A stretch of 64,000 nt of DNA from the IMG/VR virus record IMGVR_UViG_3300045988_129625, positions 1 to 64,000 of that record; one strand, written 5' to 3'. Positions 32,421 to 34,150 of the stretch are shown here, piece after piece; within the stretch, counting starts at the first letter, position 1; each line of letters starts with the position of its first letter. A program made the translations under genes and the position numbers. This stretch comes from a virus. Below the pieces are notes generated by a model. That model was given only the letters and a program-made list of their open reading frames with translations, had not been told where the DNA came from and did not search any database.

Positions 32421-32590
32421 AATACGAGGATGTTCAAAAGTTAAGAACAAAATACCGGCAAGATCCGGAGGTTATAAACGTAGAATACATGAGAGACGTT
32501 GCTGTAAGAAGCGGGAATTTTAAGAAAGCATTTGAGCTTCAGGAAAGACTGGAGGATATATGGTTTAACTACTTAAAAGAGGTGCAATGA
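32417..32590 (+). CDS. hypothetical small protein (57 aa)
   Basis: ATGA overlaps at both ends. Confidence 0.4.
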   Translation: MKYEDVQKLRTKYRQDPEVINVEYMRDVAVRSGNFKKAFELQERLEDIWFNYLKEVQ

Positions 32591-32811
32591 AAGAAGTATT
32601 GATAGCAGGAGCAGCGGCCTTTTTATTATTATACTTGTTTGTAACGATTCTTATAAAAATAAGCATGGCAATAGATCGGTATAAGATGAAGAAGAAGACC
32701 GACAAAATAAAAGTCGGTCAAAGATACGAATACGAAGGCTACTTCATGGATCCATTTGAAAGAGGCAAGCATGTGATTAAGATATTAGACTTGACATACT
32801 CCCATCGCTAA
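32587..32811 (+). CDS. small membrane protein (74 aa); 3' end overlaps the tnpB stop
   Basis: AGAAAFLLLYLFVTILIKI TM helix; translationally coupled to upstream ORF. Confidence 0.45.
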   Translation: MKEVLIAGAAAFLLLYLFVTILIKISMAIDRYKMKKKTDKIKVGQRYEYEGYFMDPFERGKHVIKILDLTYSHR

Positions 32812-34110
32812 AGCAAATGGGATTCTTGGATACAAGCGCAAGAAACCCCGATGTTGCTATCGTTGGAATTACTCTTGCTCTCCAATTCGGAAATGCCCTT
32901 CCGAAGTATATTACGGGCTGCAAGAACATCACGGTCGTTTACCGCGCCGCACGACGGGCACACCCACGTGCGGTCGCGTAACGACAGTCCTTTATTAATG
33001 CAGCCGCATTCACAAGTTTTGGAAGAAGGATACCATTTATCAATCTTATGTACAGTTACTCCATACTTTGAAGCAACATACGTAAGTTTATCAATAAAAG
33101 AAGAATGACTGAGATCAGAAACTTTCTTTCCCCACAAACGTTTCATTCCTTCAATGTTTAGATCTTCAATGAAAATATAATCATACTGTTTGCATAACTG
33201 GTGTGCTAATCCCCATTGAAAATCCGATCGAAGATCGTTTATTTTACGATACGCTTGTTGTAGTTCAAACAGTCTCCTTCTTCTATTGTTGGATCCTTTC
33301 TTTGCATTAGAAAGCCGTTTGTTTAGTTTTCTAATCTTGTTTTGATATTGTTTGAAGAATAGCGGAGACCCAATTTTGTTACCATCGCTTTTAGTTAAAT
33401 AAGTTTTCAGTCCGAAATCCAATCCGATAGATGCACCATCATGTGTCTTTCTATAGGAGTTTATAAGATTATGATCTGTAACTATAATCAAACTAAAACG
33501 GGAACAGGTTTCTCTAACTATTCTAATTTGTTTAACATTACCTTCATAAGGTCTACTGTATGAGAATCTAAATCGTTTCTTTCCTTTGTTGATTGTTAGA
33601 CAATTACCATTTAGGGTAAACCCTCCTTGCTTAAAAACAAAGGAGTTAAAACAATCAGCTCCCTTAAACTTAGGAGGTCGTTTAGCCAACTTCTTAAAGA
33701 AACGATTATAAGATTCATCAAGACGTTCAAGTATTTCTTGCACTGTTTGGGAATGAAGAAGATTTCTTTTAATTCTTTTGGTAAAATGTTTCTTCATTTT
33801 ACCAATTGATATATATTTTCCAAACAGTTTGTAATATCTACGTTGTAGAGCTAAAGCATGATTCCATACAAAACAGCATTCGCGAAGCATCTTGTCAAGA
33901 TACTTTGTTTTCTTGGAATGATAGATGTTGTATTTGTAGGAAATCATTTTTTTTATCTGTAATTTTGATTCAAAATTAATCAAACCAATTCATCCACTTG
34001 CTAAAGTATGGTAGTTTTGTTGGTTAAATAATCATAAAAGAAGGGTACGCTCTATATGAGTACGAAGAAAAACTATATATACGTTCTTCTGTGAGCCTTG
34101 AAGATATTGT
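32780..34110 (-). mobile_element. IS605-family TnpB-only insertion (IS1341-like); ends approximate
   Basis: tnpB in opposite orientation to all surrounding genes; palindromes TTCGGAA-atgccc-TTCCGAA inside the tnpB 3' end and ACCGAC-aaaataaaa-GTCGGT just beyond are omega-RNA/right-end candidates. Confidence 0.4.
32808..33983 (-). CDS. tnpB: TnpB (IS200/IS605-family RNA-guided nuclease), canonical active site
   Basis: RuvC-I IGLDFGL, RuvC-II YIFIEDLNIEGM, Zn finger CECGC..CPSCG, RuvC-III NDRDVLAARNI. Confidence 0.9.
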   Translation of the reverse strand: MINFESKLQIKKMISYKYNIYHSKKTKYLDKMLRECCFVWNHALALQRRYYKLFGKYISIGKMKKHFTKRIKRNLLHSQTVQEILERLDESYNRFFKKLAKRPPKFKGADCFNSFVFKQGGFTLNGNCLTINKGKKRFRFSYSRPYEGNVKQIRIVRETCSRFSLIIVTDHNLINSYRKTHDGASIGLDFGLKTYLTKSDGNKIGSPLFFKQYQNKIRKLNKRLSNAKKGSNNRRRRLFELQQAYRKINDLRSDFQWGLAHQLCKQYDYIFIEDLNIEGMKRLWGKKVSDLSHSSFIDKLTYVASKYGVTVHKIDKWYPSSKTCECGCINKGLSLRDRTWVCPSCGAVNDRDVLAARNILRKGISELESKSNSNDSNIGVSCACIQESHLL

Positions 34111-34150
34111 TAAAAAATATATTTTAATTACTGATATAAAATAAGGGGTT

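Follow-up and report, generated by a model that had tools for sequence, protein, structure and literature searches.

Two described systems offer the closest points of comparison for the element discussed here. IS608 (ISHp608) of Helicobacter pylori inserts 3' of a specific tetranucleotide with neither target duplication nor terminal inverted repeats; its right end runs from GAAT through a subterminal hairpin and a further ten nucleotides to TCAA, and its target TTAC is paired with AAAG, just 5' of the left-end hairpin. TnpB of ISDra2, from Deinococcus radiodurans, takes its RNA scaffold from the 3' end of tnpB together with the right end and its guide from the right-end flank, the target-adjacent motif (TAM), TTGAT, being the target site of the transposase. 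The present analysis concerns a 64,000-nucleotide stretch of viral DNA (positions 1 to 64,000 of IMG/VR record IMGVR_UViG_3300045988_129625; hereafter the window), in which positions 32791-34033 of the minus strand, 1,243 bp, very probably represent a non-autonomous insertion of the IS200/IS605 family, consisting of a left end (LE), tnpB as its only gene and a right end (RE) without tnpA, in an epsilon crAss-like (Epsilonunovirus-type) gut phage. For this phage group (epsilon crAss-like, proposed Epsilonunovirus), two TnpB-family "transposases" have been described in some members with no further analysis, and one of them, WOZ57285.1 of the phage crAssE-Sib (OR575929.1), was given merely as a transposase/TnpB gene, without analysis of its ends, TAM, RNA or mobility (PMC11054128).

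The ends of the element were read from a comparison with crAssE-Sib (151 kb, human gut), the closest record in the phage collection, which matches window positions 31000-36000 at about 94-95% in two pieces. By local alignment, 31000-32790 and 34033-35983 of the window meet at one point in crAssE-Sib, and the homology stops exactly at the element ends, with 80 IMG/VR copies elsewhere beginning and ending on the same two bases. On the tnpB strand, the empty site of crAssE-Sib reads CCCTTCTTTTAT|GTCTAATATC and the occupied site of the window CTTTTAT-GATTATTTAACC...GGGAGTATGTCAA-GTCTAATATC; comparison of CTTTTAT|GTCTAAT with TTAT-[element]-GTCTAAT places the insertion 3' of TTAT, and neither a target duplication nor terminal inverted repeats are present. 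A single G at the junction could belong to either end, and it was placed at the left end because the base after TCAA varies among copies and every left-end type begins GAT. Insertion directly 3' of a fixed tetranucleotide, with no duplication and no inverted repeats, is the pattern of the IS200/IS605 family, and it recurred in three more clean empty sites found by mapping flanks on crAssE-Sib and the window, so that four comparisons agree. A preliminary description of this DNA had spoken of a canonical IS605-family tnpB element at 32587-34150; the family assignment is borne out by Pfam, by the match to ISDra2 TnpB and by the family-type ends, and the interval is corrected to the 1,243 bp given above. 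The comparison with related phages that it proposed, to obtain the exact ends and the TAM-like flank, yielded both from crAssE-Sib and the IMG/VR copies. Its view of the locus as a clean example for mapping an IS right end and guide was well founded, as ends, target motif, predicted guide and empty site can all be read exactly.

Judged from the sequences compared, the site is polymorphic, and the filled junction belongs to a single strain, represented by seven ENA contigs. The empty-site 21-mer occurs exactly in 119 IMG/VR contigs, all of which run through the site without a break and share 83-96.7% identity with the window flanks, and an exact-match search with the 21-mer across the filled right junction returned 0 IMG/VR contigs. 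The exact window TnpB protein was found on seven ENA contigs, six of the seven in the same gene context, and one ENA contig of 153,986 bp is 100% identical to the window across 6.1 kb; the two ENA assemblies examined derive from different samples. Because empty alleles are abundant and the same filled context is found on ENA contigs, the insertion is neither an assembly artefact nor an ancient fixed gene. A metagenome-assembly chimera, in which a repeat had been joined into a phage contig, could be suspected because the window is part of a contig assembled from a metagenome and the element is a multi-copy repeat in the phage group; set against the coincidence of the junctions, TTAT|G... and ...TCAA|, with the biological ends of the family, and against the recurrence of the context in assemblies of different samples, this explanation is barely credible.

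Nor is there much room for an old, fixed, domesticated phage gene, such as a nuclease-dead TldR-like regulator or a weapon against competitors, which is to be judged most improbable. TnpB is indeed common in the phage group, with protein database clusters of 3,152 and 927 members on contigs of up to about 160 kb, and two TnpB genes are listed for crAssE-Sib (PMC11054128). However, the site is empty in crAssE-Sib and in the 119 IMG/VR contigs, which also answers the earlier caveat that related genomes might nowhere show an empty site; the IS ends are intact, the halves of the interrupted gene rejoin into one open reading frame (ORF), the D-E-D triad is intact, and related copies sit at many different sites. 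A TldR-type nuclease-dead derivative was ruled out by the intact triad, the intact ends and the polymorphic insertion.

On the evidence of its sequence, the TnpB of this IS200/IS605-family insertion is intact, with its catalytic residues complete. Pfam searches of the tnpB ORF returned Cas12f1-like_TNB (1.5e-20), OrfB_IS605 (1.1e-17) and a weak HTH_OrfB_IS605; PF01385 and PF07282 exceed their cut-offs, and both the D-E-D RuvC triad and the zinc ribbon are present. By phmmer, residues 11-352 match the ISDra2 TnpB structures 8EXA/8H1J (8BF8 likewise) with E=3e-29, and GLDFG, FIEDL and NDRD align onto the ISDra2 RuvC triad, placing D177/E261/D340 on the D191/E278/D361 motifs. The zinc finger is intact, with CECGC at residues 312-316 and CPSCG at residues 330-334 (cysteines 312-316, 330-333). 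All the motifs listed in the preliminary description (RuvC-I, FIEDL of RuvC-II, the CECGC/CPSCG zinc finger and RuvC-III) were thus found in the ORF, and only its length of 391 amino acids (aa) was revised: an open frame that long, the longest minus-strand ORF of the interval first flagged, does exist at 32808-33983 from an upstream TTG at 33983, but the product was set at 379 aa because the ATG at 33947 is where homologues start and where nucleotide conservation sets in, and the crAssE-Sib annotation agrees. The window protein therefore shares family and catalytic layout with ISDra2 TnpB in an almost full-length match, yet at only about 25-30% identity and with TTAT rather than TTGAT as TAM. 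TnpB copies in Helicobacter phages are 37-38% identical to it. The crAssE-Sib protein WOZ57285.1, from the same genus-level phage group, is 78.7% identical (aa) and shares the right-end terminus and the scaffold structure, but its gene lies elsewhere in the genome, between the ring-protein and tail genes, and the left end there is of another kind.

For the RNA, the final 110-120 nt of the element were gathered in 60 distinct versions, and 20 diverse ones, including Prevotella, Cryptobacteroides and Parabacteroides-phage copies, were aligned. RNAalifold resolves five helices with 36 pairs in these 20 copies, 24 of the 36 with compensatory changes; 95.5% of cells are paired versus 83.6% in shuffles, none of 500 shuffles matches any of five measures, and no slid control exceeds 10 covarying pairs. 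A custom covariance model derived from this alignment gives the window scaffold a score of 138 bits, and a 240-nt stretch reaching 20 nt beyond the right end, into the predicted guide, has a folding energy of -91.6 kcal/mol (z -4.56). In helix 1 all cells are paired and three pairs carry double changes, as in TGAGGCA/TGCCTCA of the Cryptobacteroides copy; this helix is the TTCGGAA..TTCCGAA palindrome that had been picked out from the window alone. A structured RNA formed from the 3' end of tnpB and the right end, as expected of an OMEGA system, was thus found at the level of conserved structure only, and by this analysis the 119-nt five-helix structure would be the omega-RNA scaffold. It resembles ISDra2 in origin, and differs in being a modelled structure of 119 nt and five helices. 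The expectation that scaffold and right end lie largely within the 3' coding region of tnpB proved correct, with covariation supporting the structure. The ACCGAC..GTCGGT hairpin noted just beyond was rejected as a right-end feature: the GACCGAC/GTCGGTC repeat at 32697-32719 is phage coding sequence 72-94 nt beyond the element, and it lacks conservation, synonymous differences breaking it up in crAssE-Sib. An extension of the RNA upstream into the zinc-finger coding region, where the single-sequence fold is strong and the alignment fold patchy, was left out of the model, and an Rfam match to mir-208 (19 bits) in a scan of 31500-35500 was judged to be chance.

The predicted guide is phage DNA abutting the right end, antisense to a membrane-protein gene, and continues from the right end into the phage flank, in line with the earlier proposal that the guide would be drawn from junction sequence. 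TTAT followed by the predicted guide is exactly the empty site of crAssE-Sib, and the sole near match to TAM plus guide in the window is the right-end junction, with TCAA in place of TTAT. The coordinates of the element and of the gene that it interrupts are collected in the table.

Table. Positions of the element, its predicted RNA parts and the interrupted gene in the window
Feature	Position	Strand	Detail
Whole element	32791..34033	-	tnpB orientation: 5'-GATTATTTAACC...GGGAGTATGTCAA-3'
Left end	33948..34033	-	33 distinct type-A left ends aligned
tnpB coding sequence, 379 aa	32808..33947	-	stop TAG 32808-32810; start ATG at 33947
RuvC codons	D177 33417-33419, E261 33165-33167, D340 32928-32930	-	numbering from ATG 33947
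Right end with predicted omega-RNA scaffold, 119 nt, five helices	32791..32909	-	102 of 119 nt inside the tnpB coding sequence
Helix 1 (TTCGGAA/TTCCGAA palindrome)	32886..32905	-	alignment A3, columns 5-12 pair with 17-24
Right-end subterminal hairpin, CCCAT-TTGCTTTAGCG-ATGGG	32800..32822	-	helix 5: 9 pairs, 7 with compensatory changes
Predicted guide, 5'-GUCUAAUAUCUUAAUCACAU-3'	32771..32790	-	position follows the known rule for TnpB elements
Target/TAM tetranucleotide TTAT (ATAA on +)	34034..34037	-	directly 5' of the left end; flanking DNA, outside the element
5' part of interrupted gene, 68 codons	32587..32790	+	alignment with crAssE-Sib WOZ57340.1
Orphaned 3' part of interrupted gene, 36 codons + stop	34034..34144	+	frame still open

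A second match of the covariance model (19.9 bits) falls at 17307-17420 on the plus strand, where only the last ~45 nt (...ACCGCGAACTTTAGGTGTGGGAGTATGTCGA, ~17376-17420) resemble a right end; as a second scaffold this stretch was rejected, most of the alignment lying within a native phage ORF. The right-end-like sequence closes a 434-bp segment, 16987-17420, which carries a 117-aa ORF, is absent from crAssE-Sib, L042 and L072 (two of the loci numbered in the family comparison below), and has a 24-bp direct repeat, AGAGATGACAGAAGG.ATCT.A, on either side; in genomes without the segment this repeat comes straight after TTAT. The whole resembles the scar of an earlier insertion, reduced to a solo right end.

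Within the host genome, the element has inserted in, and truncated, a gene of the replication module that, from the sequences, encodes a small transmembrane protein and is non-essential. Its crAssE-Sib counterpart is WOZ57340.1, a "transmembrane domain protein" of 107 aa, with the next gene beginning 7 nt beyond, and removal of 32791-34033 in silico restores a 104-aa ORF collinear with it. The preliminary description had seen here a 74-aa membrane-protein gene whose stop overlaps that of tnpB; the 4-bp overlap with the ORF 32587-32811 is correct, but this ORF is the truncated 5' two-thirds of a gene of 104-107 aa, and its final six codons (LTYSHR) and stop (32809-32811) are right-end sequence of the element. 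The gene model is corrected accordingly, the "74-aa membrane protein" being a truncation product. Translational coupling at the 5' end of the truncated ORF is plausible, because its ATG overlaps the stop of an upstream 57-aa ORF, 32417-32590 (ATGA at 32587-32590). As had been noted, tnpB is the sole minus-strand gene of a 40-kb module: the other credible genes over roughly 1-40 kb are all on the plus strand, and the homologous module of crAssE-Sib is annotated on a single strand. The neighbours identified by Pfam are a PD-(D/E)XK nuclease (31401-32420) and a ResIII/Helicase_C helicase (34527-35948).

An IMG/VR scan with the TnpB protein returned 316 relatives, and ends and sites were analysed for the best 80 of the 316. 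These are 88-95% identical to the window element in DNA and 90-97% in protein, match its ends base for base, occupy at least 25 distinct sites and reside on phage contigs of about 75-160 kb, as many as three of them on one contig. Among the best 120 of the protein clusters, the longest contig is of about 160 kb and the sole source name is "MAG TPA: endonuclease [Caudoviricetes sp.]". A scan of one genome per bacterial species gave two distant relatives (57-58% aa identity), in Prevotella and Cryptobacteroides metagenome-assembled genomes (MAGs), and no chromosomal donor was found in that scan. On this account the close TnpB lineage looks, as far as its sequences tell, phage-resident, and the phage host is probably a member of the Bacteroidales.

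Elements of the IS200/IS605 family carry imperfect subterminal hairpins at each end, which TnpA recognises as single-stranded DNA. Three left-end arrangements are found among the copies compared here. In type A, to which the window copy belongs, TTAT stands directly before the left end in all copies and the consensus is TTAT|GATTATTTAACCAACAAAA-CCACC-N11-GGTGG, with a 5-bp stem; type B reads TTAC|GATCTTTAACAAAG-CCCCTGC..GCAGGGG, and the autonomous relative TTAC|GATTTTATCCAAAG-CCCCTC..GAGGGG. In the reference genomes, TTAT (TTAC in the case of type B) stands before each mapped right-flank start, and this is far from chance because TTAT is expected only about once per 100 nt. The change of target from C to T (TTAC to TTAT) is paralleled by a change from G to A in the left-end tetranucleotide (AAAG to AAAA), which we take to be what the IS608 retargeting rule predicts. 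By locus, type B comprises L013, L022, L043, L047, L060, L063, L068 and L075, the autonomous form L088-L103 and L003, and type A L004-L083. Near-identical modules of tnpB and right end are paired with different left ends and targets, TTAC going with AAAG and a strong GC hairpin, and TTAT with AAAA and a short hairpin of right-end type; in a further type, the L028 group, the right end finishes TCAT.

At the right end of the window copy, GAAT (32822-32825) precedes a hairpin that is present and covarying, and ten nucleotides, AGTATGTCAA, follow it to TCAA at 32791-32794, presumably the cleavage tetranucleotide; we take this arrangement of GAAT, hairpin, 10 nt and TCAA to be the IS608 geometry, which the element terminus ...GAGTATGTCAA resembles. 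The conserved loop of the hairpin, CTTTAG, holds the tnpB stop codon, and the terminus is kept down to 57% aa identity, in the Prevotella and Cryptobacteroides MAGs and a Parabacteroides phage. At the left end, AAAA (34015-34018), presumably the IS608-type guide tetranucleotide, is followed by the subterminal hairpin. Within the left end, TAATTTTG at 33971-33978 on the minus strand, 24 nt upstream of the tnpB ATG, shows the motif TAnnTTTG, which we take to be the Bacteroidota -7 promoter box; equivalent boxes, TATATTTG, occur in the other left-end types, with a near match, TATACTCA/TATATTCA, in the L022 group of type B, and such boxes fit a Bacteroidales host. A sigma-70 promoter and terminator scan was set aside, its counts being near the shuffled expectation and the model ill-suited to the probable Bacteroidota host.

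No TnpA was found by tblastn with the IS608, ISDra2 and MT839900 TnpA proteins in the 64-kb window, in crAssE-Sib (150,000 of 151,256 bp) or within 3 kb of the 80 copies, and the window copy is therefore regarded as non-autonomous. The lack of a Y1 (HUH) TnpA is compatible with membership of the family, in which TnpB-only elements are a recognised state. The autonomous relative is represented by MT839900, a 5.6-kb phage scaffold with a Y1_Tnp gene (Pfam 1.3e-39) divergent from tnpB; this tnpB is 75% identical in DNA to that of the window and has the same ...GGGAGTATGTCAA end. TnpA of this type (95-100% identity) is present on 17 IMG/VR phage contigs whose lengths are 10.5-157 kb (82-157 kb in 13 cases), and one of the TnpA-bearing contigs also has a window-type copy elsewhere. 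In MT839900.1 (L003, marked "UNVERIFIED"), at 826-1966, the autonomous tnpB is split into frames of 285 and 83 aa, probably a sequencing frameshift.

Compared with IS608, then, the family agrees in its insertion 3' of a specific tetranucleotide, in the absence of target duplication and terminal inverted repeats, in its TCAA right end 10 nt after a hairpin preceded by GAAT, in the TTAC target and the AAAG just 5' of the left-end hairpin of its autonomous and type-B members, and in a Y1 TnpA that, in the autonomous relative, is 43% identical to IS608-type TnpA. The window copy departs from IS608 in lacking tnpA, in targeting TTAT with AAAA replacing AAAG, and in its replicon, a virulent-type crAss-like phage; its left-end hairpin is, in the type-A consensus, a short stem of right-end type, degraded in the window. 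The divergent orientation of tnpA and tnpB in the autonomous relative is that of IS605 and differs from IS608.

Several points weigh against the reading of 32791-34033 as an IS200/IS605-family insertion of this kind. The left-end stem of the window, CTACC (34010-34014)...AGTGG (33994-33998), carries two mismatches against the consensus and, folded as DNA, is no better than shuffled sequence (z -0.07, against -3.8 for type B and -3.3 for the autonomous form), so that the copy may excise poorly and its left end, as modelled, may be impaired. The autonomous tnpA+tnpB element that was found targets TTAC, unlike the TTAT of the window subtype. The Rfam scan of 31500-35500 matched no omega-RNA family. 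The omega RNA itself, the place of its 5' end, the length of the guide and the TAM that TnpB prefers are all predictions. Finally, the nearest sampled copy of the element has 94.7% DNA identity, on which account the donor was not found, and a "recent" insertion can mean merely one that followed the split from relatives about 95% identical.

Taking ISDra2, IS608 and the published transposon-retention model as guides, we infer how an element with these features would behave. A transcript running from the right end into the flank would add a guide of ~16-20 nt (GUCUAAUAUCUUAAUC...), and TnpB with the omega RNA would cut TTAT followed by a guide match (TTAT+GTCTAATATCTTAATC). The target would be the uninterrupted allele, as in a precisely excised copy or a co-infecting relative, and recombinational repair from an occupied genome would restore or copy the element; the occupied allele would be immune because the element separates TAM from target. 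The excised circle would join TCAA to GATTATTT. Reaching new TTAT sites would need Y1 TnpA in trans, and a minority of related phages have a cognate element that carries both tnpA and tnpB and shares this right end.

These steps lend themselves to another emphasis, which leaves the identity of the element as it is: TnpB elements might spread among epsilon crAss-like phages mainly by RNA-guided homing independent of TnpA, the empty allele of a co-infecting phage being cut and repair copying the element with a short flank, and transposition by TnpA being rare or historical. Most copy-bearing genomes have no TnpA, and one contig among those of the 80 copies also has tnpA. In a comparison of 153 same-site pairs over a 1,160-nt core, with windowed and 300-nt flank comparisons, 17 pairs differ by at most two mismatches in the core. 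Among pairs with 0 core mismatches, L060/L061 differ at 27 of 300 positions of the right flank, L052/L054 at 45 of 269 of the right flank and L019/L020 at 12 of 300 of the left flank; in same-site pairs, identity persists for 54 to ~250 nt beyond the right end and then drops, as a co-conversion tract would. A review describes IS605 spread in plasmid populations promoted by TnpB and independent of TnpA (PMC13565253). Identical copies in diverged flanks are, however, no more than suggestive of co-conversion from RNA-guided homing. The phages are strongly mosaic, so that ordinary recombination events breaking close to the element might produce such a pattern as well; most compared contigs come from one IMG/VR dataset, 3300045988, in which assembly repeat collapse is possible; the at least 25 different TAM-adjacent sites need transposition to be reached; and the insertion in the window is confined to a single strain. 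Homing as the main route is accordingly possible and on balance rather unlikely. As an observation on the pairs themselves, L019/L020, L052/L054, L060/L061 and L065/L067 are identical over the 1,160 nt, with flanks that diverge by 3-17% from 0-250 nt outside the element. The T-even phages provide a parallel in the free-standing homing endonuclease genes (Seg, Mob), which are likewise selfish nuclease genes between or inside phage genes, variably present, and for which spread by co-infection with co-conversion of flanks is equally conceivable; in the window element, recognition would instead be RNA-guided and self-immunity would come from the insertion itself, so that the analogy is one of mechanism, with no homology.

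Still more tentative than homing alone is a broader proposal, a phage-resident radiation of TnpB-only IS605-type elements that now spread chiefly by TnpA-independent RNA-guided homing, also remodel genomes, and in which a left-end variant was retargeted from TTAC to TTAT (AAAG to AAAA). If it were true, adjacent deletions of 12 to ~2,100 bp, always ending 3' of a TAM, would give a new guide and remove non-essential phage DNA.

Many genomes have the element in place of a piece of phage DNA, which measures 12 bp, 189-296 bp or 0.5-2.2 kb. On the window the replaced segments are 17583-17771 (L072/L073), 48629-48830 (L030/L058/L062), 50507-50696 (L032-L034), 3345-4166 (L059) and 6544-8700 (L031), and others map on crAssE-Sib (L014, L023, L015). 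At such loci the left flank ends at one TTAT and the right flank begins right after a downstream TTAT/TTAC; in the series L008 to L014/L023 and L009 to L015, the clean insertion and its deletion derivatives share the left junction. Possible routes are the joining by TnpA of the right end to a downstream target in cis, two-site integration, or unequal crossover at neighbouring TAMs. The idea that the replaced segments of 188-202 bp were derivatives resembling miniature inverted-repeat transposable elements was discarded, the segments being ordinary coding DNA unlike the element ends. Two loci are irregular: L081 has its terminal GTCAA duplicated (TCAA-GTCAA-flank) in comparison with L076/L079, and L015 is without the first 12 nt of the L009 flank, its deleted segment ending ATAT/ATGT, not TTAT.

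The window also holds a second, unrelated TnpB, at 52929-54198 (ORF 52973-54196, minus strand, 407 aa; OrfB_IS605 2.8e-22, TNB 1.2e-12), the counterpart of crAssE-Sib WOZ57293.1. Its whole 1.27-kb segment is missing at locus L024, where the flank maps to 54504-54199 and then to 52928-52724, and it too is therefore a polymorphic insertion.

For the IS200/IS605 family as such, knowledge is left unchanged, because the element at 32791-34033 is a textbook TnpB insertion. Its practical value lies in the definition of both ends, the TAM TTAT, a predicted guide, a scaffold supported by covariation and more than 100 natural empty alleles, in an abundant and uncultured group of human-gut phages. With several hundred related copies at many sites, the family constitutes a natural data set on homing in virulent phages, on movement without a resident transposase and on phage gene content.

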